Assembly (NCBI GenBank): GCA_964448115.1
Contig: CAYUVA010000007.1
Coordinates: forward strand, 14,689 to 78,688
DNA from: an uncultured bacterium
GTDB lineage: Bacteria > CAYUVA01
Reading direction: 5' to 3'
DNA length: 64,000 nucleotides
Shown here: piece after piece, positions 1,945-43,481 of the stretch
Layout of the letters: every line of letters starts with the position of its first letter
How positions within the stretch are numbered: position 1 is the stretch's first letter
The notes under the pieces: generated by a model
Told to the model about the DNA's origin: nothing
The model's input: only the letters and a program-made list of their open reading frames with translations
The model's database searches: none
Made by a program: the position numbers and the translations under genes

Positions 1945-1984
1945 AGGCTCGCTTAAAAATCGCAATGTCAAAATAGCTCCCTAT

Positions 1985-2013
1985 AATATAGGAGTATATC
2001 CCCCTTTTGTCAA
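1985..2013 (-). promoter_or_regulatory. Sigma70-type promoter for the minus-strand tRNA-Gln/tRNA-Glu operon.
   Basis: On the minus strand the sequence reads TTGACA, a 17-nt spacer, then TATATT. The -10 element ends about 35 nt upstream of the tRNA-Gln 5' end. Confidence 0.5.
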
Positions 2014-2208
2014 GTTAATTTTTACTTTCTCGCCGCTTGCCAACCTCCAGCAAATAGGTTTTGTTAAATTTCATGATATCTTGATTTAATATGGCTTAAA
2101 GGCTAAGATACTAGGGAGGATGCCCAAGGCATTAGCCTAGGACTTTTATCTGCTTGCAGACTATGCTAGGCTAGATGGGAAAATGATAGATACGGAGTAA
2201 CAAGGACA

Positions 2209-2625: not shown

Positions 2626-2700
2626 TGCAAGGTTAAGACAAAATAGCAATATTCGAATATCTTTCTTATTCGCGCTATAATCAAATCTAACTGATTTCCG

Positions 2701-6825: not shown

Positions 6826-6858
6826 GATCGAGAAATTCAACTAATAACGGAGGTTAAA

Positions 6859-8328: not shown

Positions 8329-8488
8329 ACATCTTTTGAAAGGAAGCCACCATTGATAATCCAATATGACTCCATATAAAAGTCGAGGCTCGCAGAGAAA
8401 TTGCCGGCAGGGTCGTTGAAGGAATACTTGAATTATTCTAAAAAAATATGACTTTTTCGCCAAAAGAGAAATTATGTTTAAAGAAGAT

Positions 8489-8517
8489 TTGTTCAAAATG
8501 AATAAATATGCTATATA
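8489..8517 (+). promoter_or_regulatory. Candidate sigma70 promoter for the GH57 operon.
   Basis: TTGTTC, a 17-nt spacer and TATATA sit in an AT-rich 220-nt intergenic region about 30 nt upstream of the ORF at 8548. Confidence 0.3.
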
Positions 8518-8547
8518 AGTAATGAATATAGAAATATTTCAATTATA

Positions 8548-10734: not shown

Positions 10735-10753
10735 GATCTAAAAGGAAAGCTTT

Positions 10754-12895: not shown

Positions 12896-12979
12896 GCTTG
12901 AATCTCATGATAGGTATATCGGCTAATGGATTTTTCACAGGGCAACAAACATAGCCCTTAATAGCAAGGAAGAGAGGCC

Positions 12980-24447: not shown

Positions 24448-25225
24448 TGATTCCCAAGATATGAATGACGATGCGGTAGAAAATCCGAGCTGGGGAATAA
24501 TATCGCCTATAGGTATTATCTTTTTTACATTTATATTTGTCTATTATATTTTTGGTTTTCAGTTATCAATTTATGTAAAACATATTGATAAATCAAACAG
24601 TTATAACTATTTATTATTTTCCAGCATGTTGATTCAAGATTTTATTACCATCGCTTTAGTATATTTAATAATAATTAAATTTCAGAGGGTAGCCTGGAAG
24701 GAAATCGGGTTAAAGGATTTAAAAAATATTAAAAATATCAAGTATGGTATCAAGGGGTATCTTTTAATAATTATTTCACTTATCTGTATTGGCATATTTT
24801 TTACTGGGATCGCATTTTTAATGGATAATCTCGGTTACCAGGAACTTGCCGAGGCGATAAGAAAGGAACTTGAGTTTGCTGACAAGTACTCCAAGGAGAT
24901 CCTCAAGTTATCTCTCTGGCAGATGTTGATAGCTATCTGTTTATTAGCACCCATTATTGAGGAGATTCTGAACCGGGGCATTTTATATCCACCCTTGAGG
25001 AGGCTGCTGGGAGTAAGAGCAGGTATGATAGCTACGGCACTGTTTTTTTCATTCTTTCACCTCGGGCAGGGGATTGTCGGGTTTGTTATGCGCTTTGTCA
25101 TTGGTTATATTTTAACCTGGCTCTATGAGAGAAGAAGAAATTTAGCAGCCCCGATAACCGCGCACATCATGCAGAATACGGTAACAACTTTGTTGGCAAA
25201 GTTTGTAGTTGATGTGCCTACATAG
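24437..25225 (+). CDS. CPBP-family intramembrane metalloprotease (CAAX-protease / Abi-like).
   Basis: Motifs EEILNRG (EExxxR), FFSFFH (FxxxH) and a distal HIMQN are embedded in TM helices. Confidence 0.7.
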   Translation: MENSDSQDMNDDAVENPSWGIISPIGIIFFTFIFVYYIFGFQLSIYVKHIDKSNSYNYLLFSSMLIQDFITIALVYLIIIKFQRVAWKEIGLKDLKNIKNIKYGIKGYLLIIISLICIGIFFTGIAFLMDNLGYQELAEAIRKELEFADKYSKEILKLSLWQMLIAICLLAPIIEEILNRGILYPPLRRLLGVRAGMIATALFFSFFHLGQGIVGFVMRFVIGYILTWLYERRRNLAAPITAHIMQNTVTTLLAKFVVDVPT

Positions 25226-27145: not shown

Positions 27146-27903
27146 GTGAAGGTGCAAGGGAGCTGTCGGTGATAATCTTGGCTGCCGGCAAAGGAAAGCG
27201 TCTGGCAAAGCATTTTCCACACACTCCAAAGGTGCTTCTGCCACTTAAAGGAAAAAGGATCATCGATTACACGCTGGATAATGTATATGCCCTCAAACCC
27301 AAGAATATATTTCTCGTTGTCGGATACAAGGCAGAGCAAGTGATCGAGGCGGTCGCTCGCCCCCAAATTACATTTGTGCGTCAAGATATGCAGCTTGGCA
27401 CCGGACATGCTGTGGAGATGGTCAGGGAGCACCTTGATGAAACCAGCGGCGATTTCCTCGTCCTCTATGGTGATATGCCGCTAGTAAGATTGGAAACCCT
27501 GATCCATTTAATCGACCTTCATCTTAGCCAACCAGTAGTTGCTTCAATGCTGGTGGCTGAAAGAAGCGAAGAGACCGAGAGCTTCGGGAGGGTGATCCTA
27601 GATGATAAGGGTAATGTCAGTCAGATTGTCGAGGTTAAGGATTGCGACAAGGGTCAGTTCAGTTCGCCTTATGTCAATCCCGGTATATACATCTTCGAGG
27701 GGAAGTTCCTCTTTGAGGCTCTTGCACAGGTCGGCTTCGACAATGCCCAGGGAGAGAAGTATCTTACTGATGTTATAGGGATTGCCATTAGGCAGGGGCA
27801 TAGGGTCAGTATCAGCTTTGATATAGAACCAGCAGAGACACTGGGGCTAAATACGCTGAGGGATTACTTGAGACTCAAGAGCTTATTTGGCGATAAAAGC
27901 TAG
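27142..27903 (+). CDS. Sugar-phosphate nucleotidyltransferase resembling the GlmU N-terminal domain, with no acetyltransferase domain.
   Basis: ILAAGKGKRL, QDMQLGTGHAV and VLYGDMPLV are NTP-transferase motifs. The start overlaps the upstream stop (ATGA). Confidence 0.6.
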   Translation: MSEGARELSVIILAAGKGKRLAKHFPHTPKVLLPLKGKRIIDYTLDNVYALKPKNIFLVVGYKAEQVIEAVARPQITFVRQDMQLGTGHAVEMVREHLDETSGDFLVLYGDMPLVRLETLIHLIDLHLSQPVVASMLVAERSEETESFGRVILDDKGNVSQIVEVKDCDKGQFSSPYVNPGIYIFEGKFLFEALAQVGFDNAQGEKYLTDVIGIAIRQGHRVSISFDIEPAETLGLNTLRDYLRLKSLFGDKS

Positions 27904-30566
27904 TTTTTAACATTCATGTAAGGCCAGAGTTCGCTCCAGGTAGCCTCATAATCGACTGCGCCTATCTCAAGTAGCGCTCGCACTGGTGATAAACCGCCGC
28001 CGAAATCGAAGAAGACGCCATATATATCATCATCCCTGCCAAAATCGTCCGAAAAGCCGTTGTCCTTGAGCTTTATCTGCGTATTTTGTCCCATGTAGAA
28101 TATATATGCTTCCTCAACGCCTGGCTCGATAAAGTCAAGGATTAAAGCGCGTAGATGAACAACACCGCCGCTAGCTGCATTGACCCGTGTCTCCCAGTAG
28201 CCTCCTAACATCACCACCGGTCCTGTAAATGCCGGCGTGGTCGGGGTTGGAGTCCTAGATGGGGTGAACGTAGCTGCGCCGGTATTTGTGGGAGTGCGGG
28301 TCGGGGTAGCTGGAGGCGGAGTCTTGGTCGGTGTCCTCGATGGAGTAAAGGTCGCTTGTCCAGTAGCGGTAGCGGTCGGCGTCCTGGTCCGGGTTGCGGT
28401 GCGAGTGCGGGTCGGGGTGGCAGTAACCTCGGCATAACTGATAGCATCCCTTATCTGCAGCTTGCCATAACCCCAGGCATGGTTGGGGGTAATGCCAGTG
28501 AAGGCATCCGATTTGGCTGTCTGTTGCATCATTATGGCAATATCGACCAATGACCTCTGCGGGTACTTCTGAAACATGAGGGTGTATGCGCCAGCTAAGT
28601 GCGCTGCTGCAAAGCTGGTGCCACCGCCGACCGTGTAGCGATACTGGCTCTCCAAGATCGAATGGCTGCAAGCTGAGATCACATCATAGTGCCCGGGACA
28701 GGCGAAATCGAGGCTCATGAAGCCATCGATGCGCGGTCCCTGGCTGCTGAAGTCGCTAAGTTGTCCGGGGAATGCCCTGGTGCTATAAGAGCCGGCAACA
28801 TCGGCTCCATCAGCCGTTGCCGGCCAGCAAACCGAGCCGGATGGATCTTGATAATTTGTAAATACAGTTGCCCCCTCGAATACTGCATGTTGATCAGTAA
28901 CCCAAGCCTCGAACGGCTCCGCGCTCCCCGCGTCGTTCTGCACGCTGAAAGTCCAGTTGCCGACCACTGTCGGATTAACATCCTTCTGGACATAAAGGAC
29001 GACCATGGAGGTGTTGCGCGATGAGACCTGGCTAAAGGAATAGATGATATAGCCATTCCATTGCTGAGGATTATTTTGCAAATCGAGTTCCCTGCTCCAT
29101 CCATTAGGTGCGGTGATCTGAAAATTCATCATGTTGGAGGGGCTGGTCCAAAGGAAGGTTACGATGAGGACTAGACCAGGATCGAGTGGACTTTGCCAAC
29201 CCGGCGGGGAATATATCTGCAGGTTCACGCTGCTATAGGCTGGCACGCTTCCGTGTGCATGTTTACCCCCGCTAGCAAAGTTGCCGCTGGGAAATACCTG
29301 TGGTATCTGCCGATTGTGGTAGTTATCGATCAAAGCCTCGAGATTGCTTGAGCCATCGTTGTACTGCAAGTGCGGCACAACCATTTGATGGCAAAAGACG
29401 CGAGCAGCCGATTCATCAGCCCACTGGAGTAGCCTAGGGTAATCATCCGTGGTGGAGAATAATCCGACCATGATCTCAGCACCGGGAGCAACGCCTACGA
29501 AGCGACGGTAACGGGGCATCTCTCCGGCGATCACCGAAGCCACGGCAGTGCCGTGCCCGGAGATATCCGAGGGCGTATCCAGCAGATCCTCGCCTCTCTT
29601 AAACTCATTGGTGGCATCGTAGTTCGCATAAATCTTGGATAATCCCAGCGGTATCAGCTTCTCGCCAACATCGAGCCGGTTGTTACCATTGGTATCCTTG
29701 ACCACATAAAGCCTTTCACCATAAGTGGGATCGTGCTCGCCATAGCCCTGCTCCACGCCAAAGTCCCTGAATCCATTATTGTTGGCATCGTTAAAAAGCC
29801 AGTCAACATCCGCAGTAAAGGTATTTATCGGGTTCGGCTCATAGTTATTGGCATCAAGGATCTTGCTCTCCCGATAGGAAAGTATCTCGCCGCTGTCAAG
29901 CATGCCGTTACTATTCTTATCCACCCCGTCCATGCCGGGATCGAATTGGTGGTTGCCGTTGACATCGAGCCAGTTAAGCTCAATATCCATGGGGAAGAAG
30001 AACGAGGGATGATAGACATCGATGCCCGTGTCAAAGATGGCGACTCGCATTGAAGTGCCATCGACCGGATTACCACCAGGATCAGTAACCTCCTCCCAGA
30101 CCTGGTCAGCCTGAAGCTCCGGGATGCTTTGGTTGAGTGGCTGGTAGAATACCGGGGTCCAGGAGGTCTCGATGCGCTCTATTTCCTCAATGCCAGCTAG
30201 CGTTTCAAGAATATTCAATGGAGCCCTGGCGATCGCGATATTTCCTGCCAGGTAGATTTTATCATCCGAGCGAGAGAACTTGATCCCGATATCCTCAAGT
30301 AGAGATTCTATCTGCGGGGTAGGGGGCTGCTTGAAGCGGATGGTAACATCGATCTCATCGGTGGAGGGCAAAAAATCAGATCTCATACCCGCCTTGTGAA
30401 AGGCGAGTATCAACTGGAGGCTGGGACCGAATACATTGCTATCGGCTTGATGCTCAGTAGCCATTGTTGGGGGCATAACAACAAAGAGTATAATTATACA
30501 AAAAACGAAACCGGCACCTTTTTTCCATTTATGTCTGTATTCTTTTCTACCAGATCTCATGGTCAA
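27900..30566 (-). CDS. Secreted subtilisin-like (S8) serine peptidase with dockerin/EF-hand-like calcium-binding loops, a PT/TR-rich linker and the shared C-terminal domain.
   Basis: A signal-peptide-like N-terminus is followed by the catalytic triad in D-H-S order (VAIFDTGID, GHGTAVASVIAG, GTSFAAAHLAG). Dockerin/EF-hand-like loops are DVNGNHQFD, DANNNGFRD and DTNGNNRLD. The linker TATPTRTRTATRTRTPTATA...TPTPTTP is followed by GGYWETRVNAASGG...LWPYMNVKN. Confidence 0.8.
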   Translation of the reverse strand: MTMRSGRKEYRHKWKKGAGFVFCIIILFVVMPPTMATEHQADSNVFGPSLQLILAFHKAGMRSDFLPSTDEIDVTIRFKQPPTPQIESLLEDIGIKFSRSDDKIYLAGNIAIARAPLNILETLAGIEEIERIETSWTPVFYQPLNQSIPELQADQVWEEVTDPGGNPVDGTSMRVAIFDTGIDVYHPSFFFPMDIELNWLDVNGNHQFDPGMDGVDKNSNGMLDSGEILSYRESKILDANNYEPNPINTFTADVDWLFNDANNNGFRDFGVEQGYGEHDPTYGERLYVVKDTNGNNRLDVGEKLIPLGLSKIYANYDATNEFKRGEDLLDTPSDISGHGTAVASVIAGEMPRYRRFVGVAPGAEIMVGLFSTTDDYPRLLQWADESAARVFCHQMVVPHLQYNDGSSNLEALIDNYHNRQIPQVFPSGNFASGGKHAHGSVPAYSSVNLQIYSPPGWQSPLDPGLVLIVTFLWTSPSNMMNFQITAPNGWSRELDLQNNPQQWNGYIIYSFSQVSSRNTSMVVLYVQKDVNPTVVGNWTFSVQNDAGSAEPFEAWVTDQHAVFEGATVFTNYQDPSGSVCWPATADGADVAGSYSTRAFPGQLSDFSSQGPRIDGFMSLDFACPGHYDVISACSHSILESQYRYTVGGGTSFAAAHLAGAYTLMFQKYPQRSLVDIAIMMQQTAKSDAFTGITPNHAWGYGKLQIRDAISYAEVTATPTRTRTATRTRTPTATATGQATFTPSRTPTKTPPPATPTRTPTNTGAATFTPSRTPTPTTPAFTGPVVMLGGYWETRVNAASGGVVHLRALILDFIEPGVEEAYIFYMGQNTQIKLKDNGFSDDFGRDDDIYGVFFDFGGGLSPVRALLEIGAVDYEATWSELWPYMNVKN

Positions 30567-30605
30567 CTCCTGTATGAATTGCTGCTTATTATCTTAGCTC
30601 GAATC

Positions 30606-31643
30606 TTAATCAGTTTCAAAGGCTCCTGGGATAGTCTCGCTGTACGGCGGATTCAAGACTCCCTTCTCGGTTACGATAGCGGTAACCAGGCTGTTTGGAG
30701 TTACATCAAAAGCTGGATTCAGCAGCTTAGCTCCTTCGGGCACAATTAACTTTCCATTAATATGAGATACCTCAAAGGTTGTCCTTTGTTCTATGGGTAT
30801 ATCAGCCCCGCTTGCTGTTTTTGTATCAATAGTTGAAAGAGGTGCCACCACATAGAACGGGATGCCAAAGTTCTTAGCAAGTATAGCCAGGCTCATGGTG
30901 CCGATCTTGTTTGCCACATCTCCGTTGGCGGCAATGCGATCAGCACCGACTATGACAGCATCGACCTTTCCCTGCTTCATCATCCAGCCAGCCATGTTAT
31001 CGCAGATAACGGTAACATCCACGCCATTCTCCATAAGCTCCCAGGCGGTGAGGCGCGCCCCCTGTAAGAATGGTCGAGTCTCATCAGCCAGCACCTTGAT
31101 ATCCTTGCCCATCTCTCTTGCTGCATAGATGACGCCAAGGGCAGTGCCATAGCCAGCAGTGGCCAAAGCGCCAGCATTGCAGTGGGTCAAAACGCAACCT
31201 GGTGATGGCAGCAGCTCAGCGCCGTGCATGCCCATAGCTTTGTTCGTTTCTATATCATCGTTAAGCATTTTGATTGCGAGCGCTTCTATTGATTCCTTCA
31301 GCTCGGCGATACTTTTATCCTTATTATGCGCTACATGGGATTGAATGGCTTCTATAGCCCATCGCAGATTGACCGCTGTAGGACGGACATTCAACTCATC
31401 GCAAACCTTATCGAGCTGTCTCTTGAAATCATCGTAATCATCCGCCTTGATCTGCCTTGCGCCCAAAGCGATCCCTAAAGCAGTGGCACAGCCGATAGCC
31501 GGCGCTCCGCGAATAACCATCTCCTTGATAGCCTCGGCAACCTGAAGATGGGTGGTATATTGGTTGTAGATCACCTGGTTGGGTAGCTTCCTTTGGTCTA
31601 TCATTATCACCTTCGAGTCTCGATAGCTTATGGTCTCGAACAT
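30606..31643 (-). CDS. mtnA: S-methyl-5-thioribose-1-phosphate isomerase (eIF-2B alpha/beta/delta family).
   Basis: A 345-aa protein with MtnA/e2B-family features (GAPAIGCATALG, GADRIAANGD). Confidence 0.7.
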   Translation of the reverse strand: MFETISYRDSKVIMIDQRKLPNQVIYNQYTTHLQVAEAIKEMVIRGAPAIGCATALGIALGARQIKADDYDDFKRQLDKVCDELNVRPTAVNLRWAIEAIQSHVAHNKDKSIAELKESIEALAIKMLNDDIETNKAMGMHGAELLPSPGCVLTHCNAGALATAGYGTALGVIYAAREMGKDIKVLADETRPFLQGARLTAWELMENGVDVTVICDNMAGWMMKQGKVDAVIVGADRIAANGDVANKIGTMSLAILAKNFGIPFYVVAPLSTIDTKTASGADIPIEQRTTFEVSHINGKLIVPEGAKLLNPAFDVTPNSLVTAIVTEKGVLNPPYSETIPGAFETD

Positions 31644-31860
31644 AGAACTCTCCTTGTTAAAAGAGTGCGATTAGCATTTTAATCTCTCTTTTTTTCAATC
31701 GATGTTATCTATAAACAATTTAGCTGCGGGTGTCCATATCAATCCTGCTTTAATAATGAAAAAGCCAGTGGTCTGCGCCTTGAATTAGCTAAATGAATAT
31801 CTATACTAATCAGGAAAAATAAAAATATTGTCTTCCATAACAAAAAAAAGAAGGAATGAT

Positions 31861-32370
31861 ATGAACAAGAAGATTATAGCGGTTTATCCGGGCACATTCG
31901 ATCCCATAACGAACGGACATCTGGATGTTATCCGAAGGGCTGTGAAGATCTGCGATACGCTCCATGTAGCCGTGGTGCAGGTCAGCTCTAAAAAGACACT
32001 GTTCAGCTCCGAGGAAAGGGCGCAGATCATCAAGGAAACCCTCAAGCAGAGCGATATTGACCAAGTCAAGGTTGAGACATTCTCCGGGCTGCTGGTAGAT
32101 TATGCCAAGAAAGTCGGCGCCAGCTTTATTGTGCGGGGGATCAGGGCATTCTCCGACTTCGAATACGAGTTCCAGATGGCGCTGATGAACAGGAAACTCA
32201 ACCCGAATATAGAGATCCTGTTCATGATGCCCAGCGAACACCTCTCCTATGTCTCAGCCAAGCTGGTAAAAGAGGTGGCGTTTCATGGCGGTAATGTCGC
32301 TGACCTGGTGCCAGAAACGGTGCTTAGACGCATCAAGGAGATTTATGCTAGCGGGGAGCTGAAGCCATAG
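31861..32370 (+). CDS. coaD: Phosphopantetheine adenylyltransferase.
   Basis: AVYPGTFDPITNGHLDVI is the CoaD signature. The ATG at 31861 has a GGAATGA Shine-Dalgarno upstream, so the ORF-table start at 31828 is probably over-extended. Confidence 0.85.
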   Translation: MNKKIIAVYPGTFDPITNGHLDVIRRAVKICDTLHVAVVQVSSKKTLFSSEERAQIIKETLKQSDIDQVKVETFSGLLVDYAKKVGASFIVRGIRAFSDFEYEFQMALMNRKLNPNIEILFMMPSEHLSYVSAKLVKEVAFHGGNVADLVPETVLRRIKEIYASGELKP

Positions 32371-32438
32371 GATTGTTAGGGTAGATTCCCTTTTTAATCC
32401 TTTTTTACTTTGTGCCTTGGTGGTTCTATAACCCTTAC

Positions 32439-33653
32439 TTAAAACGGTAGTACCCTGGTCAGGTAGAAGTAGGGCAGGAACATCGATAGAGCGATGAAGG
32501 CGACTATCAAGCCGACCGCAACCGTAATGAACGGCTCAATCAACGTTGCCACAGTATTAACCAGGTTGTCTATCTCCTTCTGATAGCTCTCGGTGATGCG
32601 TCTGAATACGGAGAGCATGTTGCCGGTCTCCTCGCCGACCGAGATGATATCTACCACCATGTCAGGGAAGATATACTCGTTTCTGAGCTGTTCTGCCAGT
32701 GTGCGCCCATCCTCCAGGGTCCTGATACCCCTCTCCAGAGCCTCCTGTAGCACGACATTGTTCGCTGCATCCTTGGCTATGCGCAGGCTGGTGATAAAGG
32801 GCACCTTTGCTGTGAGCATGGTCTGCATTAGTTGAGCGAATCGATAGATGGCAAGGTCGCGCGAGATCCTCCCTATGATTGGCAGATGTATCCCGATTCT
32901 CTGTGCCAGTGAGCGACCGGCACGAGCATGGAAAAACCATCGCACTACGAAAATCAGGATGATTATGATTATGAACATGAGAATCGAATGCCCGGCAAAG
33001 AAGTCTCCGAAACCGAGGGTCAACCGGGTGGGCCAGGGGAGGTCAGCCTGAACCGTATCGTAAACCTGTCCGAAGGTGGGGACCACGAAGATCATCAAGA
33101 AGAAAAAGGCGATGATTGCAGCGGTCAAAGTGAGGAGTGGATACATCATTGCACTGGAGATCTTCCCCCGTATCGATTCGTCGTTCTCGATGTAATCGCC
33201 GAGGATCTGGAAGGAATCCTTGAGGACGCCACCCGCCTCTGCTGCCTTTATGGTGTTGACATAAAACTCATCGAATACCCGATGATGCCGAGCCATGGCG
33301 CTTGAGATAGATGTTCCGCGCTTTACCAGGTCGGAGATATCTGCGATGGTCTTTTGCAGGTTAGGGTTTGTTATTCGATAAGCCATGATCTCCAATGCCT
33401 TTGCAGGCGCTACACCGACCGATAGCAATAGAGACATCTGGTGTGAGAACATGGCTAGCTCCTTGCGGCTCGCTCCGCCGAAGATATCTCGCCGCCAAAG
33501 CCACCGAAGACCGCGCCTGGGCTGAACTTTTGTTTTATGAAGGGAGTTCTCTATCTCCATGCCCAGTACCTGGGATTGTCCCAGCTTTTCCTTCAGGGCT
33601 TTCTGTACATCCTTTTTAGCCTCGTCCTTGGGACCTTCTTGCTTTTTACCCAT
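32439..33653 (-). CDS. Type II secretion / type IV pilus platform protein (GspF/PilC family).
   Basis: Two GspF repeats on an inner-membrane platform topology, with a C-terminal IISVGEETGNMLSVFRRITESY motif. Confidence 0.8.
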   Translation of the reverse strand: MGKKQEGPKDEAKKDVQKALKEKLGQSQVLGMEIENSLHKTKVQPRRGLRWLWRRDIFGGASRKELAMFSHQMSLLLSVGVAPAKALEIMAYRITNPNLQKTIADISDLVKRGTSISSAMARHHRVFDEFYVNTIKAAEAGGVLKDSFQILGDYIENDESIRGKISSAMMYPLLTLTAAIIAFFFLMIFVVPTFGQVYDTVQADLPWPTRLTLGFGDFFAGHSILMFIIIIILIFVVRWFFHARAGRSLAQRIGIHLPIIGRISRDLAIYRFAQLMQTMLTAKVPFITSLRIAKDAANNVVLQEALERGIRTLEDGRTLAEQLRNEYIFPDMVVDIISVGEETGNMLSVFRRITESYQKEIDNLVNTVATLIEPFITVAVGLIVAFIALSMFLPYFYLTRVLPF

Positions 33654-33661
33654 AGTGCCTC

Positions 33662-35836
33662 CTATAGGATTATCTCCTTGAGTACTTCCTCTGGAGTTGT
33701 TATATGTTCAATGATTTTCCTAAGACCGTCATCTTTAAGGGTTATCATTCCGCCATCGATAGCGGCTTTATTGAACTCTTCCTCGCTGGCGTTAGCAAGG
33801 ATGAGTTTTCTGAATTCTTCGTTTATGACCAGGATCTCGAAGAGCCCGGTCCTTCCCTGGAAGCCCGTGTAAAAACAGGCTGAGCAACCAGCTCCTCTTG
33901 CCAGCTCCAAATCGCTTTTTTCATCCAGCCCGAGACCCTTTAATAGTGCAGGCTCCGGCTTGTATGTCTCCTTGCAGTTAGGGCAGATCCTGCGCACCAG
34001 GCGCTGAGCGACCACACCGATAACCGAGTTGGCGATGAGATACCTCTCGATCTTGAGGTTTGATAACATCGTGATAGCGCCAATAGCGTTGCTGGTATGG
34101 AGTGTGGAGAATACGAGCTGCCCGGTCAATGCAGCCCAGACGCCAACCATGGCAGTTTCCGGAGTTCGTATCTCACCGATCATGATTACATCCGCATCCT
34201 GGCGCAAGATCGCCTTCAAGCCCTGCGGAAAGTCCAGATCGATCTCAGGATTGACCTGCACCTGGGTAATGCCCGGAATCCTGTACTCGACCGGATCCTC
34301 GATGGTTACAATGTTTGTATGAAGAATATCAAGCTCATTCAGGCAGGCGTAAAGGGTGGTGGTCTTTCCGCTGCCGATAGGTCCGGTTACCAGTATCATG
34401 CCATTAGGTTTGGATATGAGACCCATGAGCGTATGGTATGAGTCCTTGCTCAGTCCGAGCTGCTTGATGCCAGTGAGGACCCCACCTTCTTTGAGGATGC
34501 GAAGAACCAGCTTCTCGCCCATGTAGGTGGGGAGTGTTGCTACCCTAAGATTGAACTTGTCCTCGCCGACATCAAGGCTCAGGTGTCCATCCTGGGGGCG
34601 TCTTTTCTCGGTGATATTGAGGTCAGCCAGGACCTTGATGCGGGAGAGTACCGCAGAGGTCTGATAATCGGGAACCTCCATTGCGTCATAGAGCACCCCA
34701 TCGATTCGATACCTGATTCGCAGCCCTTTTTCCTGTGGCTCGAAGTGGATATCGGTGGCACGAGCGTTGATGCCTCCCTCTATAATGCTAACCACGAGGT
34801 TGACCGCCGATGTCTCTATAGCGGTAACCGGCTGGTATCCAACCTTAGGTTCTTGTGGCTCTTCGGTGGATTCCACTGCTTGTTCGATGCCCTCGTAAGC
34901 AACCTGTTCTTGAGGTATCGCTTTTTTCATCATCTCCTCGGAGAAGAAGTGCTCGATGGTAGCTTCGATATACTCGTCGTTTGCAAGGCATGGCTTGATC
35001 TCAGCGCCGGTCGAAAAAGCTATATCGTTTATAACTTTGTCCTTGAAGGGATCTGCCATGGCGAGCTTTATAATGCCGGCGTTCTTGGAGATGGGTATGA
35101 CCTTATGTTCCCTGGCTATTGTTTCTGGAATACTATAAACGGCTGCTGGGTCCAGATCTTCGATAACGATGCTGACAAAGGGGATGTTCATATATTTCTC
35201 CATCATTGAGGGTATCTCATCCGGATTGATTATCCCCTTGTCGATCAGGTACTTGATCCTGGTTCCTTTTTTACCTTTGGCGAATTTCTCAGCAGCGGTT
35301 CTTTGTCGTTTGGTGATCACCTTGGTCTGCAATAGGATATCAGCAAAGGCACTGTCCTGCTCCTCGGATGCCCTTGTTTGAAGTGAATATCGATAAAGCT
35401 CGGCGATCTTGGAAGGAGGAACATACTTCAGGTTTATAAGTGTACGCCATAGCGGATGGCCGGTACGCTTGGACTCGTCCATAGCATAATGAAGTTGATA
35501 CTCGCTGATGAAGCCCTTTTCAACTAGAAGCTCGCCGAATTCCTTGTCAGACTGCTCACCCTTTTGCAGGGCGACCTTAATCTCTTCATCGCTGAGCAGC
35601 CCGATCTCCTGGAGCAACTCATTCAGCTCTCGCCGTTTGGTTCCCGCAAAGGGTATAGGCACCTCGTAGGACATAAGCTCTTTTAGCGCATCAATGCTAA
35701 CATCCTTCTTGAGGATCTGCATCAAGGATTTGGGTCGTTTTTCGATCTCGGTCAGCGCTTTTTCCAGGGTCTCTTTTGATATGAAGCCGAGATCCTTGAG
35801 CAGCTCCATCAGCCTTGTCTCTTTAGTCTGTGTCAT
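33662..35836 (-). CDS. Type II secretion / type IV pilus assembly ATPase (GspE/PilB family) with an N-terminal MshEN-like putative c-di-GMP-binding module.
   Basis: Walker A is VTGPIGSGKTTTL, and a C-terminal tetra-Cys knuckle is CPNC...CSAC. The N-terminus carries three copies of the MshEN 24-aa motif (RLMELLKDLGFISKETLEKAL, RRELNELLQEIGLLSDEEIKVALQKGEQ and FGELLVEKGFISEYQLHYAMDE). The last two are separated by a 4-5 aa spacer, as in MshEN. Confidence 0.8.
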   Translation of the reverse strand: MTQTKETRLMELLKDLGFISKETLEKALTEIEKRPKSLMQILKKDVSIDALKELMSYEVPIPFAGTKRRELNELLQEIGLLSDEEIKVALQKGEQSDKEFGELLVEKGFISEYQLHYAMDESKRTGHPLWRTLINLKYVPPSKIAELYRYSLQTRASEEQDSAFADILLQTKVITKRQRTAAEKFAKGKKGTRIKYLIDKGIINPDEIPSMMEKYMNIPFVSIVIEDLDPAAVYSIPETIAREHKVIPISKNAGIIKLAMADPFKDKVINDIAFSTGAEIKPCLANDEYIEATIEHFFSEEMMKKAIPQEQVAYEGIEQAVESTEEPQEPKVGYQPVTAIETSAVNLVVSIIEGGINARATDIHFEPQEKGLRIRYRIDGVLYDAMEVPDYQTSAVLSRIKVLADLNITEKRRPQDGHLSLDVGEDKFNLRVATLPTYMGEKLVLRILKEGGVLTGIKQLGLSKDSYHTLMGLISKPNGMILVTGPIGSGKTTTLYACLNELDILHTNIVTIEDPVEYRIPGITQVQVNPEIDLDFPQGLKAILRQDADVIMIGEIRTPETAMVGVWAALTGQLVFSTLHTSNAIGAITMLSNLKIERYLIANSVIGVVAQRLVRRICPNCKETYKPEPALLKGLGLDEKSDLELARGAGCSACFYTGFQGRTGLFEILVINEEFRKLILANASEEEFNKAAIDGGMITLKDDGLRKIIEHITTPEEVLKEIIL

Positions 35837-35850
35837 TTTATATAATCGTA

Positions 35851-36765
35851 TTAAAAGTAATGCATGTAACTTGCCAGGGGTGCCTCATCGTAGCCGTAAA
35901 ACACCTTGCTCCATGGGGAGATGGAGACATCATAGACCACCACCACTCTCTCTTTGGATGCGCTTTTGCTGGTTGGATAAGACCCTTCAGCGACTATCTT
36001 GTAGTAGGCTGAGTTGAACTTTAACAAGGATAGCTGCTGATCGTTGAGCGTGAAGTCGAAGTTGCCTGGCTGGTTGAGAAGTTTCAGATCACCGATGTAA
36101 ACATCATCAGAAGTGAACGGCTTTCTGTCTGCGCCGTTGCGATAAGCCACTATCTGTGCGGACTGCGAGGGGAGGATCTTCAAGGTGGCGGTTATCACCT
36201 CGGCAGGGGCAGCATTGATATCGATGGCTGCATCGCCCCAGACCGTTATCCACTTCATGACATAGGCGGGGAGTTTGCCCTTGGTAACCTGTTGCTGCAA
36301 GTATGACTCTACTGCGCGCGGGGAAATACTTTGACGATCAGCAATAATGGTGTTGATGATATGCTCGGAGAGTCCGGGGATGCGCATCATGGAATCCTTG
36401 TCCGCATACATGATGTTCAGCTTGGCATCCTCGTTGGTGATGCCCAAGCCTAACTCCTCGATCCCATCGGCGATGACCTTGAACTTAACAAAGTCGTCCT
36501 CTATATCTCCCGCAAGCTTGGGGCTGGTGATCAAAACTCGATGCGTATTGTCGGCTGCCAGCATATCCTTGAGCGTTTCCACGGCGGTCTGGCAGCCAGC
36601 ATAAGCAGCATAGCGGCATTTTATCTCATCGCCGCTGGCAGCAACTCGATTCCCCCAGCGCAAGGAGTCGATCTGCAGCACTCCGGCGATACCGAACAGG
36701 GCGATGAGCAAAAATATGGCCAATATTATTGTTGATCCATGGTTATTTCTTATTGTATTCATCAT
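35851..36765 (-). CDS. GspK-like minor pseudopilin.
   Basis: An N-terminal TM helix is present. GITNEDAKLNI matches the GspK DE.gKLNiN motif, and IDINAAPAEVITATL is HhH-like. The ORF is adjacent to the pseudopilin genes and its stop overlaps the next start. Confidence 0.55.
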   Translation of the reverse strand: MMNTIRNNHGSTIILAIFLLIALFGIAGVLQIDSLRWGNRVAASGDEIKCRYAAYAGCQTAVETLKDMLAADNTHRVLITSPKLAGDIEDDFVKFKVIADGIEELGLGITNEDAKLNIMYADKDSMMRIPGLSEHIINTIIADRQSISPRAVESYLQQQVTKGKLPAYVMKWITVWGDAAIDINAAPAEVITATLKILPSQSAQIVAYRNGADRKPFTSDDVYIGDLKLLNQPGNFDFTLNDQQLSLLKFNSAYYKIVAEGSYPTSKSASKERVVVVYDVSISPWSKVFYGYDEAPLASYMHYF

Positions 36766-37361
36766 TATTTTGTCAGGTCTATAAAAAGTTCAACCGGTAG
36801 GGTAGCATTACCCCATCTATCTAGGATCACATCCATGCTGAGCGTGATCTGATCCATCGGTTCGCCCACACCTGGCTTGATCTCCAGGTTTTTAGCCCCG
36901 TTTTCGAGCATGGCTATAGGCTTGGATAGCTTACGATTTTCCTTATCGTACAAGAACCTATAGATATCGGTCTTTTCGACTTTACCTTTTCCATCTCCTT
37001 TGGTGAAAAGATAGACCACCTCCCAGTTCAAAGGGGGTGATGGTACAGCAGAAGCCGGGATATAGCTCACCTGTGGCACCTGAGCGCGGATGGTAGTCCC
37101 CTTGTGCTCCTTGCCCTGGAAGCTCAGCTTCTCGGCCTCTACTTTAATGCTGCCAAGCGACATCTCCATATCGTCCTTGAAGAGCTTGACAAACCGGGCG
37201 GTCGCCTCCCGGGCAGCGGTCGCCTTCTTATGCCGGTTATAAAGCCCGTTTGTCCTTATGTAAAAGCCAAACGCGGTCAACAAAAACAGCGACAGAATGG
37301 AGATGGCTATTAGTATTTCGAGCAGCGTGAAACCTTTATTATGGGGTACTCTTCTTCTCAT
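36765..37361 (-). CDS. Prepilin-type N-terminal cleavage/methylation domain protein (GspJ/minor-pilin-like).
   Basis: KGFTLLEILIAISILSL is the class III signal peptide and N-methylation motif. Confidence 0.75.
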   Translation of the reverse strand: MRRRVPHNKGFTLLEILIAISILSLFLLTAFGFYIRTNGLYNRHKKATAAREATARFVKLFKDDMEMSLGSIKVEAEKLSFQGKEHKGTTIRAQVPQVSYIPASAVPSPPLNWEVVYLFTKGDGKGKVEKTDIYRFLYDKENRKLSKPIAMLENGAKNLEIKPGVGEPMDQITLSMDVILDRWGNATLPVELFIDLTK

Positions 37362-37364
37362 CGG

Positions 37365-37766
37365 TTACCTTCCCAGTGAATATCTCGATACGAGGTTATA
37401 AAACTCCTTGCCATCGTTTCGCTTTATGGTTATTGAGATCTGGTAAAGATCATCCTTCACCTTATCGATCTTCCTTTCCCAGATAAACTCGGTAAAACGC
37501 TTATCATCGCGCCAGTTGAAATCGCCTCTTTGCTTTATGGGCAGAGTTTGATCACTGACGATATCGCCAAGATTCCTAAAGGTCATCTCCATGGCGTTCT
37601 GGGCGAGCATTATCGCCTGTAATTTAAGCTGGGAGTGGCTGGAGATATTCATCGCAGACACGATCATGGTCGCAAGCGCGGAGATCCCCACTCCCATGAT
37701 CACCACTGCAACAAGGATCTCTACCAACGAGAAACCTTCTTCGTTATTAATGAGTAATGCTTTCAT
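37365..37766 (-). CDS. Prepilin-type pseudopilin (GspI/GspH-like).
   Basis: EEGFSLVEILVAVVIMGVG is a prepilin-peptidase site, in a 133-aa protein. Confidence 0.75.
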   Translation of the reverse strand: MKALLINNEEGFSLVEILVAVVIMGVGISALATMIVSAMNISSHSQLKLQAIMLAQNAMEMTFRNLGDIVSDQTLPIKQRGDFNWRDDKRFTEFIWERKIDKVKDDLYQISITIKRNDGKEFYNLVSRYSLGR

Positions 37767-37824
37767 GGCATCGCTTCTATTTTTAAGGTTGCTATTATCC
37801 TACTCAAGCTGAGTCAACTATTTA

Positions 37825-40008
37825 TCACAACTGTGATTGAAATGCAATAGGGATATGCAATTTTTTTAAAAGAAAATCTGATCTGCCAAGAAGGAAAAAA
37901 CCGCAAAATAGCAATGTAAAACTGGTGATAAGGATGCCGGGTACAGATTTTGCCTTGAAGGAGAGTCTGCCCATTCCATTGCCCGGCATCTCGGCTTTCA
38001 TAAGCCAGTTTTCATCTGGAGCCAATGGAATGCTTTTGCCATTGAACTTCAACCTCCAAAGCGGATGATAGGCCATTTTTATAGCTATTCTATTATGCCG
38101 ATTTGCTTGATCAGCTAGCTGAAATTGAATTAGGTCGGTTTTGCTTAATAAAATCTTAATACTAACATCGGGGTCATCAGCACTGATCAATGCAGGGATA
38201 AATCGAGTTAACTTGAACAAGCAAAAAGAACCCTCACAGTGATTCATCTCGAAATACTCGCTGTTTTCGAGTATTTTATGCAGAGTCCGTTTTGGCTCCC
38301 ACAGGCGAGGTCCCTGCTTCTTCTTAAATAGCCCTCTTTTCACCTGGTCGCAGGTAACGATATAGCCGATATTGAACTTGCTGCAATAGCGTGCGATCTC
38401 AATATCTGATATCTTCCATAGCTTATTGCCAAACAATGAGCCATGATTGGTGCGAGTGATGTCGTTTATCGGGTATAGGAAAATCTTGCACCAACCGCCG
38501 ATGGAGGAAACCGCGCTGCGCTGCGAGGATAGAGCCATAATATGGCTGTTGGATAATGCTCCCTCCATGTTGCCATAGGTTGTCTGGTATAAGATACGGC
38601 CATGGCTGTGATCTAGATTTTTCTTGATATAATCCCAGAGCGACTCAAGGTCTTTAACCTGGGGCACCTGGCTGGAGACGCGCATCATACCTGGCATCCG
38701 AGCCGGATTGCGATAGGTGGCTAGGAAATTTATGCCCAATGCTGCGACCAATGCAATGGCTGCAAGTAGGATTACCCTTGCTTTTGTTGTCCTTAGGTTG
38801 ATGTTTTTTATGCTCATAATCATCCAATGCAGTTGCAGCGCTGCAAGCAGGTGAATGATCGCCTGGATAACGATGAGAAACCGCCGGCTGAAGAAACCCT
38901 GTAGCAGCCCCAACAAGGGCAGCGCGCGAAGCAACTCGGAGGAAACCCAATAGCCGCTGGTGATTATGATTGAAATCGCCCCTAGTAGCAAGAGGCTGCG
39001 AAGACCAAACCCAAGCCTAGCGCCACTAAAAGTGATAGCAGCAAAGCCAAGTAATGCCAAAAGGTCAATAACGATTACATGACTAAGCGGCGATAGCCCC
39101 TTATATAGTATCTTAAAAAGTTCACTAGGATTACCCTGACCTAAAAGATCTATGCCTTGCAGGATAACAAATTTAGGGATTCCTAGAATACTTAAAGGAA
39201 ACTCGAAGAAAAGACCATGGGCAATCGGCAACGGCTTGCCCGGCTCTGCTTGCGGCATCCATGAGGCAGTAGCTAAGATGGGGAGCAAATAGAATGCGCA
39301 TAAGCATAATGATAAAGAAGCCATTATTGCCAGCTTTACCAGTCTTTGACTAGTCCTGAGCCTTATTCTCTCCACAAATAAAAGCACAGCAATAAATATG
39401 AACCATAGCGCGGACATAAACAGGTGAGACAGTATCGCTAGCGCTCCCAGCAAGCCAGACACGATAATAACCTTAGCGTTCAGTCTATCTGCCCTTAAAA
39501 TTATGAATCGCATGGCGAGAAAGATTATCCCCAGGGCAAAAAATGTATTATATGTCCCCTTGAAGACCTCCCAGATAACCTCGGTTCTGGTTATGAAAAC
39601 TAGTGAGGTGATAAGCGACGGGAACCAACCCGCAAAGCAGCGACTTAGGTAGTATAATCCAACGCCACTCATCGCATAAGACAGAAGCACAACCAGCTTG
39701 TAAATAAACTCGAAATTAAAAGGGGATAAAAGCTTGATCAGGCATCCAAGCCAAAAGGTAGCCTGGTAGAAGTACATCTGGAATGGGAAGCCGGCAAAAT
39801 CCCAGTCGCACCAGCCGATGAACCATCCAGACAGGGGAAGCAGGTGATAATAAAGGTAATAAAACTCTGCGAGATGAACCGGGTGATCCAGGTAAAGAAG
39901 ATACCCCGGCTTGAATATATCCTTGCTGATGAGAAAGGCTACCAGGATGATGATAATGGCGCACAGAGTATCACGCCATTTCGCACCTTTATCTATTGTT
40001 CCATCCAA
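37825..40008 (-). CDS. Large polytopic membrane protein of unknown function (possibly GT-C-like or YfhO-like) in the pilus/secretion operon.
   Basis: About 14 predicted TM segments are followed by a soluble C-terminal domain of about 300 aa. It lies 20 nt downstream of pgk and 58 nt upstream of the pseudopilin gene. Confidence 0.4.
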   Translation of the reverse strand: MDGTIDKGAKWRDTLCAIIIILVAFLISKDIFKPGYLLYLDHPVHLAEFYYLYYHLLPLSGWFIGWCDWDFAGFPFQMYFYQATFWLGCLIKLLSPFNFEFIYKLVVLLSYAMSGVGLYYLSRCFAGWFPSLITSLVFITRTEVIWEVFKGTYNTFFALGIIFLAMRFIILRADRLNAKVIIVSGLLGALAILSHLFMSALWFIFIAVLLFVERIRLRTSQRLVKLAIMASLSLCLCAFYLLPILATASWMPQAEPGKPLPIAHGLFFEFPLSILGIPKFVILQGIDLLGQGNPSELFKILYKGLSPLSHVIVIDLLALLGFAAITFSGARLGFGLRSLLLLGAISIIITSGYWVSSELLRALPLLGLLQGFFSRRFLIVIQAIIHLLAALQLHWMIMSIKNINLRTTKARVILLAAIALVAALGINFLATYRNPARMPGMMRVSSQVPQVKDLESLWDYIKKNLDHSHGRILYQTTYGNMEGALSNSHIMALSSQRSAVSSIGGWCKIFLYPINDITRTNHGSLFGNKLWKISDIEIARYCSKFNIGYIVTCDQVKRGLFKKKQGPRLWEPKRTLHKILENSEYFEMNHCEGSFCLFKLTRFIPALISADDPDVSIKILLSKTDLIQFQLADQANRHNRIAIKMAYHPLWRLKFNGKSIPLAPDENWLMKAEMPGNGMGRLSFKAKSVPGILITSFTLLFCGFFLLGRSDFLLKKLHIPIAFQSQL

Positions 40009-40028
40009 GCTCTAGTTTTATATCTTGC

Positions 40029-41222
40029 TCATTCAATCAGCGCCTTGACCCCAGGGAGGATCTTCCCTTCCAGCAGCTCGATGGATGCGCCTCCGCCAGT
40101 GGAAATATGCTTGATCTTGTCTGCATAGCCTGATTTTTTAACTGCCGATGCGCTCTCGCCACCGCCTACAATTGAGACGGCGCAGCTTTTAGCTACAGCC
40201 TCGGCAACCGTGAATGTACCCTTTTCAAAGCCCTTGACCTCGAAGACGCCCATAGGTCCGTTCCAGACAATGGTGTTTGCATCAAGGATTACCTTAATGT
40301 AAAGCTCGATGGTTTTAGGACCTATATCGAAGACCTTCATCCCGGCTGGGATCTTGTCCTTGTCAGCGATTACTTTTTCTGCATCCTCGGTTGCTTGCTT
40401 GGCGCAGACATAATCTAGCGGAAGCAAGAACTTGAGGTCGCTTTTGGCTGATGCCTTTTCCATAATCTCCTTGGCGACCTTGATATCGTCCTCACCCAGA
40501 AGCTCGCTTTGTATATCAACACCCTCAAGTCTAAGGAAGGCATAGCATAAACCACCGCCGATCAGTATGCTATCGACCCGATGCAGCAGGTTGAGCACCA
40601 CAGCGATCTTGTCCGAGGCTTTTGCTCCGCCGAAGATGGCGATAAAAGGTTTTTTGGGATCTTTAAGAGCGCCTATTAGATAGCTAAGCTCCTTGTCCAT
40701 TAAAAAGCCAGCTACTTTTACCTTGAAGTACTCAGCCATGCCGGCGGTTGAGGCGTGTGCTCTGTGGGCAGCGCCAAAGGCATCGTTGACATAGATATCA
40801 GCCAACTCTGCCAGGGCTTTAGCCATATCTGGGTCATTATCGGTCTCTGCCTTGTGATAGCGGAGGTTCTCCAGGAGAAGGATCTCTCCAGGTTTCAACT
40901 GCTCAGCCAGCTTTTTTGCTTGCTCTCCGATGCAGTCCTCGGCGAAGTGCACCTTCATATCGAGGAGTTTTTCTAGGTGCTCTGCCACAGGCTTCAGGCT
41001 CATCTCGGGGACAACTTTACCCTTGGGTCTTCCCAGGTGCGAGGCTAGAATCACTTTAGCTCCATTGTCCAGTGCATACCGTATAGTGGGCAGGGCGGCG
41101 GTTATGCGCTTGTCATCGGCGACCTTAAGATCAGCAGTCAAGGGTACATTGAAATCGACCCGTATGAAGACGCGTTTATCCTTTACATCGATATCAGAGA
41201 TAACCTTGTAATCCCTAGCCAT
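40029..41222 (-). CDS. pgk: Phosphoglycerate kinase.
   Basis: [15 protein letters not shown] and GGGAS are PGK motifs, in a 397-aa protein. Confidence 0.9.
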
Positions 41223-41235
41223 CTTGATGCACCTC

Positions 41236-41997
41236 TTATTTGTCTTTCTCTTTACCCTTCATCATTTCCTCCAGAAACGGGGGCAAATCTTTATTTTTGC
41301 CCTGCTGCATCATCGCATCCATCATGAAGTTCTTTCTTTCGGTCATCTTAAAGTCCTTGGGAACCTTGAAGACAGAGGAATCGAGCTTCTTTTTCTCCAC
41401 TTTCTTAACCTCGCCTCGATTTTCCACCTTGAACATACCGAGGTCGCTAATGGTCTCGGATACGATGGGGAAACCTTTTATCTTCTCAAAAGGCTCAGCC
41501 ATCTCCTTGTCGCCCAGGTTCAAGATTTCATAATAGGCGGGACCGTCCTCGATCTTGATATCCTCGGTTGCCCAGATTGTGATGGTTACTCCAATGGGGC
41601 TTCCGGCTCTTTTAGCTTGGATGATGTATTTCTTGCACTTGAAGTCATTGATTGTCTTTTTCTCATCGGTCTGCCGCACCTGGTACTTGATCTCCATTGA
41701 TTGGGACATGGCAGAGGCTTGTTCCATCATCTGCTTGAGGTCTTCCTCGTAGTAAATCTTGTCCGCAGGCTCAACGGTGATCATCTTCATGTTCTCGTAA
41801 TCGAAGATTGTGTAATTGCCAGCCTCATCGAGAACCTTCATCTTTTTTCCCTGGATATAGACTCGGTTCTCCACAGTAGATGATCCTTGTGGGGTTTTAA
41901 CTGTCGTCTCCTGCACTATCTCATACCCGGCATGAGCGATAGGACACAAAGAGACTAGAAAAACGAGCATAACAGTTAGCTGGAGAAGTTTTCTCAT
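41236..41997 (-). CDS. Secreted hypothetical protein with a Met-rich C-terminal tail.
   Basis: The signal peptide is [23 protein letters not shown], and the C-terminus is [29 protein letters not shown]. Confidence 0.5.
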
Positions 41998-42068
41998 AGC
42001 TTATCCTCCTACTTACCTTTAGGTTTACAATAAATATCCTAAATCAAACCCTGACCCTTTTCAAATAC

Positions 42069-43481
42069 TTGATAATCAAGTCAGTAGGCTTTATATTAAA
42101 AGCAGTGAACGAGATAATGCGAACCGGAGAGAAGATCCCCTACCTGGTACTTCGGGTTATAGATGTGGCAACACTACTTGTTCTTTTATGGAGCAGCTCC
42201 TGTTTGGGTGCAGACTGCGCTGACTACGATATGTTCGAGCCGAACGATACATACCAGCAAGCCACCTTTATTAGCACCAACGGCGATCCTATCCAGGAGT
42301 ATATCTGCAACCTTACCGATAGGGACTGGCATATCTTCTATGCGCACCAGGGGAATGCCTACCAGATCTATACCTCACGGCTCGGACCTGGGGTTAAGAC
42401 TGCTATATTCCTTTATGATCCTTCGGCTGGGGAGATCTTGCAAGTTGCCGAACCGGATGCTGATACAGGGGAGGCGTCTCTTTCCTATTCATTTACCTCA
42501 GCGGCTGCGTACTACTTTGAGGTGAGACCGAGCAGTTCAAGCGCCTATGGCGAACAGGCTGATTACAACATCCAGTGCATCGCAAGCACCTTCACCCCCA
42601 GCCCGACTCGCACTCCAACCTTGACCCCAACAGAATCTCCAACCAGCACGCAAACACCAACAGCAACCTGGACACACAAACCGACATGTACAGCAACGCC
42701 GACTCCGTCTAGCACCCCTTCAGCAACCCCGACCGGCACCCCTTGCTCGAATGATGATATCTACGAGCCGAACGACACTATGCAGGAGGCAAAGGGTCCC
42801 CTGGTGCCTTATGCCGAGTATGTCCAATTATTCTGTAGCCAGACCGACAAGGATTGGTTTTATATAGATCGCATGGATGATCGATGGTTGCACATACAGA
42901 CCCGCTGGCTGCAAGAGGGCGTGGATACCATCCTTTTCGTATATCGAAGCGATGGCTTTGGAACCATTGCCATAAACGATGATGATCCCGCAAGAGCCGG
43001 CACCAGCGATCGCTATGCCAGCTCGGTTATCATTCCACCCCCTGGGGCGCATAATGAGCCATTCTATGTGGTGGTCGCACCTAGCATCAACCATCCGAGC
43101 AAAGAGGACTCGCTGGTGGGAAAAGGGAGCCTATACCAGCTTTACATGAGTTACTATTCATCCCCGCCGGTCACCTACACGCCGACTCCGTACCCAAGCG
43201 GATATGCGCCTGGGATCTTGGCTGCCGGCTATTTGGATACGAGGCTATCAAGCAGCGAATACACCCACACATTATCGATATTCGCTTTCACAGAGGATGT
43301 CTGCATGACGGTCTGGGGTCTGTATATCCTGGAGACCACCGATGGGCGCAGCCATTTTTTGCGCTCCATTTTCCAGGGGGATCTTAGTCCTTATGCGCAT
43401 AGCAAGGTTCTGGTCGATCTGTGGAGCTTCAAGGCGAACTACGCGCCGAACAGGGGATTTTACCTGCAAGTCAATCCCTGA
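42069..43481 (+). CDS. Secreted protein with two PPC (pre-peptidase C-terminal)-like domains, a PT-rich linker and the shared C-terminal domain.
   Basis: The hydrophobic N-terminus may start at the internal Met near 42117. There are two EPNDT...D(R/K)DW(H/F) units ([10 protein letters not shown]...DRDWHIFY and [10 protein letters not shown]...DKDWFYIDR). A linker [19 protein letters not shown]...TPTGTP is followed by [13 protein letters not shown]...LWSFKANY. Confidence 0.65.

Follow-up and report, generated by a model that had tools for sequence, protein, structure and literature searches.

Three exported proteins, A, B and C, are encoded in a 64,000-nucleotide stretch of DNA from an uncultured bacterium (the whole stretch is called the window here), and an initial annotation described them as ending in a shared C-terminal domain (CTD). 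This domain most likely represents an undescribed, lineage-restricted family of immunoglobulin (Ig)-like beta-sandwiches of the E-set type for which neither Pfam nor NCBIfam offers a full-length model. Judged by sequence comparison, A and B are firm members of the family, and C is probably a divergent or degenerate member. The likeliest role of the domain, at about even odds, is that of a general surface-retention or sorting-type module on exported proteins, and no new mechanism is established by the present evidence. The core loop of the domain is already known from an NCBIfam motif model, and Ig-like C-terminal modules of secreted bacterial proteins are well known. The three open reading frames (ORFs) are present as annotated, and the Pro/Thr-rich linkers claimed for all three proteins can be read in each sequence:

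1..1608, plus strand: protein A, an exported protein of 1213 aa that is cut by the window edge, so that only its 3' part (535 codons) is present
1123..1305, plus strand: Pro/Thr-rich linker in protein A (aa 375-435, counted in the partial ORF)
1306..1605, plus strand: CTD of protein A, single copy, short-loop subtype
27900..30566, minus strand: protein B, an S8 subtilase of 886-888 aa with an N-terminal signal/anchor segment
28224..28430, minus strand: Pro/Thr/Arg-rich linker of protein B (aa 713-781)
27903..28223, minus strand: CTD of protein B, single copy; its acidic loop is degenerate (KDNGFSDDFGRDDDIYG)
42069..43481, plus strand: protein C, exported, 470 aa, containing two PPC-like repeats of the EPND type (aa 52-170; aa 228-361)
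42585-42746 and 43158-43205, plus strand: linkers of protein C, the first (Pro/Thr-rich) between its two EPND-type repeats and the second before the CTD
43206..43478, plus strand: putative CTD of protein C, either divergent or degenerate, with a family match in the first ~31 residues only ([16 protein letters not shown]...FAFTED)

Is the domain common to all three proteins? Direct comparison of the CTDs of A and B gives weak similarity (blastp 3.7e-7 over 24 aa; phmmer, searching the 448 six-frame ORFs of the window, 1e-4 to 7e-4), and protein C is undetected by A, by B or by a hidden Markov model (HMM) of the two. A family HMM of 113 positions was therefore made from 262 external domain copies, with the window proteins excluded. 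Proteins A and B are regarded as firm members because this window-free HMM matches both over the full domain length (B: 4.8e-28, positions 6-112; A: 1.5e-19, positions 6-111). For C, the match is confined to positions 6-36, the first 31 (E 2.3e-4); hhalign of C against the family covers the same 31 columns (91.6% probability, E 8e-7), and an AlphaFold2 model of the C CTD made with the family alignment is poor (predicted local distance difference test [pLDDT] 57.9, predicted template modelling score [pTM] 0.40). Hence, the shared domain holds for A and B and only in part for C, and there is no significant alignment behind the proposed equivalence of a distal LWSF motif in C with LWPY in the other two proteins. 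No fourth copy was found in the window.

The terminal regions behind the linkers are 91-107 aa long. The CTD of A lacks the acidic DDGxxGDxxAGDGxY loop and has the motifs IAGYWDSR near its start and LWPYFIVGD at the C-terminus; the corresponding motifs of B are LGGYWETR and LWPYMNVKN. All three proteins stop 2-3 residues past the last strand, C with the sequence GFYLQVNP. The window copies are most likely three diverged single-copy versions of the domain, B being intact, A belonging to the short-loop subtype and C being largely degenerate. Elsewhere in the family, P0001 is identical to protein B, and P0002 is the full-length form of protein A, with an identical C-terminus. The labels given earlier to the parts upstream of the linkers fared unevenly. 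The S8 subtilase assignment of B is sound (Peptidase_S8 6e-25), whereas "FN3 plus jelly roll" for A and "double PPC" for C are not borne out: the Pfam matches of A are weak and sub-threshold (Pur_ac_phosph_N 1.2e-4, MAM 0.07), and C has no PPC match in Pfam (Collagen_bind_2 appears at 0.0022).

The family is large. An exhaustive search of 1.84 billion representatives with a profile of A and B found the domain in 365 cluster representatives at E<=1e-3, with 154 at E<=1e-10. Its consensus, ~105 residues long (105-113), starts ...P-x-I-L-L-AGYWDT-x-L-S-x-x-S-GG-T-L-T-L-L-A-L-V-x-D-P-D-G..., continues in the middle with ...V-E-L-Y-Y-G-G-Q-P-T-G-V-x-L-K-DDG-x-x-GDF-A-AGDG-I-YG... and ends ...P-G-L-P-A-G-E-Y-L-L-E-L-V-A-T-D-x-A-G-N-E-S-D-L-WPYL-T-V-E-E. 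The acidic DDG...GD...D..Y loop is found in about half of the family copies and is shortened in the rest, as in protein A. Among the top 150 family proteins, 112 (~75%) have two tandem copies, and the last copy lies no more than 6 residues from the C-terminus in ~120 (~80%). First and second copies of a pair form distinguishable, near-identical subfamilies. In ~27 of the 150 (~18%) the tandem pair is internal, with a Pro/Thr linker and PKD repeats, PPC-like domains or other Ig-like domains behind it. The N-terminal partners are diverse: at least 53 Pfam families were recognized in 52 proteins, including Big_7, FN3, PKD, beta-propellers, FG-GAP, LTD, beta-helix, S8 and M10. By a heuristic criterion, 97 of 113 full-length carriers have a signal-like hydrophobic N-terminal segment.

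The tails that follow internal pairs are of two recurrent, unassigned types. The first, ~350-387 aa long (P0021, P0046, P0098, P0108, P0012, P0048, P0070, P0089 and P0142), consists of PKD-type repeats and a ~100-aa terminal domain ending ...(I/V/T)P-COOH. The second, ~146-158 aa long (P0009, P0014, P0015, P0049 and P0085), is a Cys-containing domain with the motif FDFG.VW.G..GPE...I.N.C and the ending G(I/F)GR(C/W)(V/I/F); by eye, it resembles choice-of-anchor-D/ASH-type Ig domains.

The fold of the domain is predicted with confidence, and its resemblance to known families is faint. AlphaFold2, run on the B CTD with a 36-sequence family alignment, returned a confident seven-strand beta-sandwich (pLDDT 94.8, pTM 0.86). 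A Foldseek search with this model gave nothing at E<=0.001; the structural neighbors listed are generic Ig/FN3 domains, including many accessory modules from glycoside hydrolases and chitinases. A sequence search of the PDB gave nothing below E 0.65. No Pfam family matches the CTD of A or B, and that of C matches only GIPC1_GH2, weakly and without evident relationship (E 0.18). The family copies show a faint similarity to Pfam Big_7 (PF17957), with 4 of 36 matching at E<=1 and the best, at 7.6e-4, lying below the gathering threshold. Indeed, all matches to Big_7 and to related E-set Ig-like domains (DUF4625, Mo-co_dimer-type) are sub-threshold, and the present domain is distinguished from them by its own conserved terminal motifs and by its C-terminal architecture of one or two copies.

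The closest known model is NCBIfam NF041940, "choice-of-anchor X", which has 37 positions and a cut-off of 25 bits. It matches the central loop in 22 of 36 copies at E<=1, and some scores exceed the cut-off: single copies reach 30.2, 27.4 and 26.3 bits, and P0019, with two copies, reaches 45.8 bits. The similarity lies in the L-x-DDG-x-x-GDF-x-AGDG-x-YG loop and strand of canonical members and spans about one-third of the domain, without the AGYWDT start or the WPYLxV end. In the window, NF041940 gives no match at E<=1 to the full proteins A, B and C or to the isolated CTDs of A and B. A literature search for "choice-of-anchor X" returned no paper mentioning this name. The comparison with Pfam, NCBIfam and the PDB therefore yields no full-length model, with NCBIfam touching a 37-residue loop of canonical members only. 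PEP-CTERM, LPXTG, MYXO-CTERM, GlyGly-CTERM and FlgD-Ig were also considered and rejected, since none gave a profile match in Pfam or NCBIfam; the scans agree with the initial annotation, which had found no match to T9SS (type IX secretion system) CTDs, PEP-CTERM, LPXTG or FlgD-Ig. The C-termini of A, B and C have no hydrophobic helix of the kind found in short sorting signals.

Which organisms carry the domain? All three named carriers (MBN1357025.1, MBN2057076.1 and MBN2054397.1) are from a "candidate division CSSED10-310 bacterium". One carrier locus, L003 on contig JAFGLW010000031.1, belongs to a Zodletone Spring CSSED10-310 metagenome-assembled genome (PMC8248873). This phylum is described as rare, Gram-negative and sister to Acidobacteriota, with flagellar and type IV pilus genes (PMC8248873). 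Elsewhere, genes of the window were seen only on short contigs of sequencing run SRR15988951, and the best non-self relative of the window PGK is ~60% identical. Exact look-ups and a metagenome scan provided 22 carrier loci on other contigs, 212 kb in total. Carriers can be clustered; locus L085 has two of them 1.6 kb apart, at 11029-12552 (minus strand) and 6358-9420 (plus strand). At locus L084, a 1523-aa C25 (gingipain-type) peptidase gene (584-5155, plus strand) lies 4.8 kb upstream of carrier P0015; its product groups with carriers by blastp and has no family-HMM match at 1e-3.

One recurrent neighbor emerged from these loci, a ~460-aa cytoplasmic-looking ATP-grasp-like protein with a faint CP_ATPgrasp_2 match, whose gene adjoins a CTD carrier at three loci:

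L003, 8321-9724, minus strand: ATP-grasp-like protein
L084, 12765-14162, plus strand: ATP-grasp-like protein
L102, 309-1667, minus strand: ATP-grasp-like protein

Pairwise identity among the three copies is 36-47%, and they have no homologue in the window. This protein was rejected as a partner of the domain because it looks cytoplasmic and the domain is extracytoplasmic; the adjacency may be plain synteny.

What might the domain do? We infer an anchoring or sorting role because of its terminal position, the linker, the diversity of passengers and the lineage-specific expansion. The domain is fused to dozens of unrelated proteins that are apparently Sec-exported, including proteases, beta-propellers, beta-helices and PKD/Big/FN3 arrays, most often as two tandem copies placed at the very C-terminus after a Pro/Thr linker. 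By binding a shared envelope component, it would hold or sort these exported proteins at the cell envelope or surface, in a manner that could resemble SLH/dockerin-type anchoring modules or a T9SS-type CTD. Binding might occur through the conserved acidic loop, which is putatively Ca2+-binding; going by the loop alone, this Asp/Gly-rich segment is a candidate Ca2+ or ligand site. The suggestion of a sorting or anchoring module made in the initial annotation fits the architecture (terminal position, Pro/Thr linkers, diverse exported passengers); the accompanying suggestion of dedication to the Gsp genes, discussed below, is not supported.

Several observations weigh against a surface-retention or sorting role. 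First, the fold is generic, and many Ig-like domains of secreted enzymes are mere spacers or ligand binders. Second, the window copies are single, diverged and without an intact acidic loop, meaning that the function of the canonical pair may have been lost in them. Third, a strict C-terminal signal would not tolerate the internal position seen in some carriers. Fourth, the search for recurrent neighbors gave no receptor, sortase-like enzyme or outer-membrane component.

Three of these observations (the generic fold, the internal position and the failure to find a partner) favor a passive role, the main rival, which is a real possibility, if the less likely one. The domain would then be an ordinary Ig-like spacer, stabilizer or binder of a ligand such as carbohydrate or Ca2+, like the PKD, FN3 or Big domains of secreted hydrolases, with no role in sorting or anchoring, and the C-terminal bias would stem from spread by domain shuffling. 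The generic Ig/FN3 structural neighbors, many from glycoside hydrolases and chitinases, are what such a module would lead one to expect, as are the faint Big_7/DUF4625 similarity, the internal pairs in ~18% of carriers, the tandem copies (a feature of repeat-type domains) and the failure of neighbor searches to find a dedicated partner gene. On the other hand, ~80% of carriers stop 0-6 residues past the last strand and have a conserved WPYLxV terminus, there are always one or two copies and not arrays of variable length, and a narrow lineage combined with very many unrelated passengers is a pattern typical of sorting and anchoring modules. A bolder version of the sorting role, which we consider unlikely, is that bacteria of the CSSED10-310 type would have an envelope-sorting system of their own, so far undiscovered, with the tandem pair as its recognition and attachment signal and as the mark of their whole surface proteome. 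Functionally, such a system would be comparable to cohesin-dockerin display or to the T9SS CTD with PorU-PorV.

Comparison with known systems offers precedents for a sorting or anchoring role without an exact match. Dockerin type I and SLH modules are found on Pro/Thr linkers and function in surface anchoring. The present domain is like them in being a small, duplicated, mostly C-terminal module that is attached by Pro/Thr linkers to many different exoenzymes, and its Asp/Gly-rich loop, if Ca2+-binding as its sequence suggests, would extend the likeness. However, both have folds unrelated to this Ig-like domain (a pair of EF-hand-like helices in dockerin, a helical fold in SLH), and no cohesin-like or cell-wall-polymer partner has been identified for it. 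The CTDs of T9SS cargo, type A and type B (TIGR04183/PF18962 and TIGR04131), are closer in form, being ~100-residue Ig-like sandwiches at the C-terminus of diverse Sec-exported cargo, and they offer a plausible functional analogy. They differ in that there is no sequence match, the present domain is usually tandem and sometimes internal, and the host lineage is another one.

The initial annotation had suggested a further possibility: the apparatus encoded by the GspE/GspF/pseudopilin genes between B and C would have the CTD as its own dedicated tag for cargo or signal for anchoring. The T2SS/T4P-like (type II secretion system/type IV pilus-like) module itself is real, with Pfam matches to T2SSE (1.3e-113) and T2SSF (2e-50) and two N_methyl proteins. 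It is set out here, for context, together with the genes that flank it:

30606-31643, minus strand: IF-2B/MtnA-family gene, which together with ~800 bp separates B from GspF
32439..37766, minus strand: T2SS/T4P-like genes (Pfam), comprising the next four lines
32439-33653, minus strand: GspF (T2SSF)
33662-35836, minus strand: GspE-type ATPase with N-terminal DUF4388 (weak, 0.0023) and MshEN (5e-16)
35851-36765, minus strand: 304-aa protein with an N-terminal transmembrane (TM) segment and HHH (SurA_N_3/HHH_3 sub-threshold), between GspE and the pseudopilins
36765-37361 and 37365-37766, minus strand: two prepilin-type proteins (N_methyl)
37825-41997, minus strand: 727-aa membrane protein, PGK and DUF4412 protein, between the pseudopilins and C

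Proximity speaks for a dedicated tag: B lies 1.9 kb and C 4.3 kb from the ends of the module, and B is co-directional with it. Moreover, C-terminal tags coupled to a T2SS exist, the precedents being MYXO-CTERM with myxosortase and GlyGly-CTERM with rhombosortase. These known T2SS-linked tags are short signals (a short motif, a TM helix and a basic tail in succession) rather than folded Ig domains, whereas the window proteins lack a hydrophobic helix at the terminus and finish on a folded beta-strand. The proximity is also less striking than had been thought. B and C were described as sitting directly on either side of the Gsp operon; in fact, housekeeping genes (MtnA-family and PGK) and others intervene, C is on the opposite strand, and protein A is ~31 kb away. 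Read along the minus strand, the order is DUF4412, PGK, 727-aa membrane protein, pseudopilins, 304-aa protein, GspE, GspF, gap, MtnA-family gene and subtilase B, with short spacers throughout apart from the ~800-bp gap, and this string has the look of tightly packed housekeeping genes more than of a dedicated operon. A Pfam scan of 33 window ORFs, a set that left out some smaller ones, revealed neither a secretin (GspD) nor a prepilin peptidase; both may be encoded elsewhere in the genome.

The distribution of carriers speaks against a dedicated tag. Homologues of GspE, GspF and the pseudopilins are present at 0 of the 22 carrier loci on other contigs (phmmer, 212 kb), and inspection of the gene tables likewise showed none. 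Two of these loci, L085 (two carriers) and L086 (one carrier), come from the same sequencing run as fragments of the window genome, and their tetranucleotide signatures correlate with that of the window at r 0.80-0.84, compared with r 0.82-0.88 for known fragments of the same genome. Thus, the same organism very probably has canonical tandem-pair carriers far from any such module. In the opposite direction, a scan for GspE-containing contigs found relatives that are no more than 50% identical (all but one no more than 42%) and come from other phyla, and the domain is present at 0 of 80 of these GspE loci. At the loci covered, carriers are scattered away from GspE/GspF, with no link to a secretion system; the initial annotation had itself named this pattern as counting against its suggestion, the apparatus-specific part of which is not upheld. 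Three carriers lie within the 64 kb of the window. Since carriers are apparently frequent in this genome, proximity to the GspE/GspF/pseudopilin genes is probably incidental and would be unsurprising for any operon. Taken together, dedication of the CTD to this apparatus is very improbable.

Least probable of all is a divergent T9SS-type CTD that is recognized by a Por/Gld-type system and cut off, leaving the cargo fixed to the outer membrane: its ~100-aa, seven-strand Ig-like sandwich at the extreme C-terminus of diverse cargo (including proteases) with N-terminal Sec signals would fit, but Por_Secre_tail, TIGR04183 and TIGR04131 are unmatched at E<=1 by the 36 copies or the full-length proteins, no T9SS CTD structure is among the structural neighbors listed, the domain is tandem in 75% of carriers and internal in 18%, none of PorV, SprA/Sov, PorU and GldKLMN was seen in the window or in the carrier-locus gene tables inspected, and CSSED10-310 is reported to be sister to Acidobacteriota rather than to Bacteroidota or the Fibrobacteres-Chlorobi-Bacteroidetes (FCB) group (PMC8248873).

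What are the implications of these findings? First, should the domain prove to sort or anchor proteins, its sequence would make the surface and secreted proteins of a rare, uncultured phylum recognizable. Second, it would in that case be a starting point toward the envelope-attachment machinery of this lineage. Third, the family is well defined (365 clusters, pLDDT 94.8) and could join the Pfam and NCBIfam libraries. Fourth, for the window itself, a tempting link between the domain and the T2SS/T4P-like genes is removed as unsupported.

Several other features of the window are worth recording. MshEN is a cyclic di-GMP-binding domain, and the GspE-type ATPase may, judging from this match, be regulated by cyclic di-GMP. 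By eye, the 304-aa protein resembles a GspK-type minor pseudopilin; PilM/N/O/P, a secretin and a prepilin peptidase were not seen near it. The ~800-bp gap between the MtnA-family gene and GspF (31644-32438) contains a dubious 143-aa ORF with a GTG start (31810-32241, minus strand) that has no Pfam match and is overlapped by a 180-aa ORF on the other strand. DUF4388 recurs outside the module: an 829-aa protein (20781-23270, minus strand) has two DUF4388 regions (3.7e-29) and a C-terminal DnaJ domain (2e-17), an unusual pairing, and shares DUF4388 with the GspE ATPase. A CPBP/Rce1-like intramembrane protease (24437-25225, plus strand; 1.2e-21) is encoded ~2.7 kb from subtilase B, with no link shown between the two. 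CPBP proteases include sorting enzymes such as myxosortase. The CPBP gene overlaps by 11 nt the end of a gene for a 336-aa polytopic membrane protein without a Pfam match (the two spanning 23437-25225, plus strand). Finally, positions 5602-15783 (plus strand) hold a glycogen/alpha-glucan cluster with GlgC-like, GlgA-like and GalT-like proteins and three GH57 enzymes, one of the 4-alpha-glucanotransferase type and one of the branching-enzyme type.

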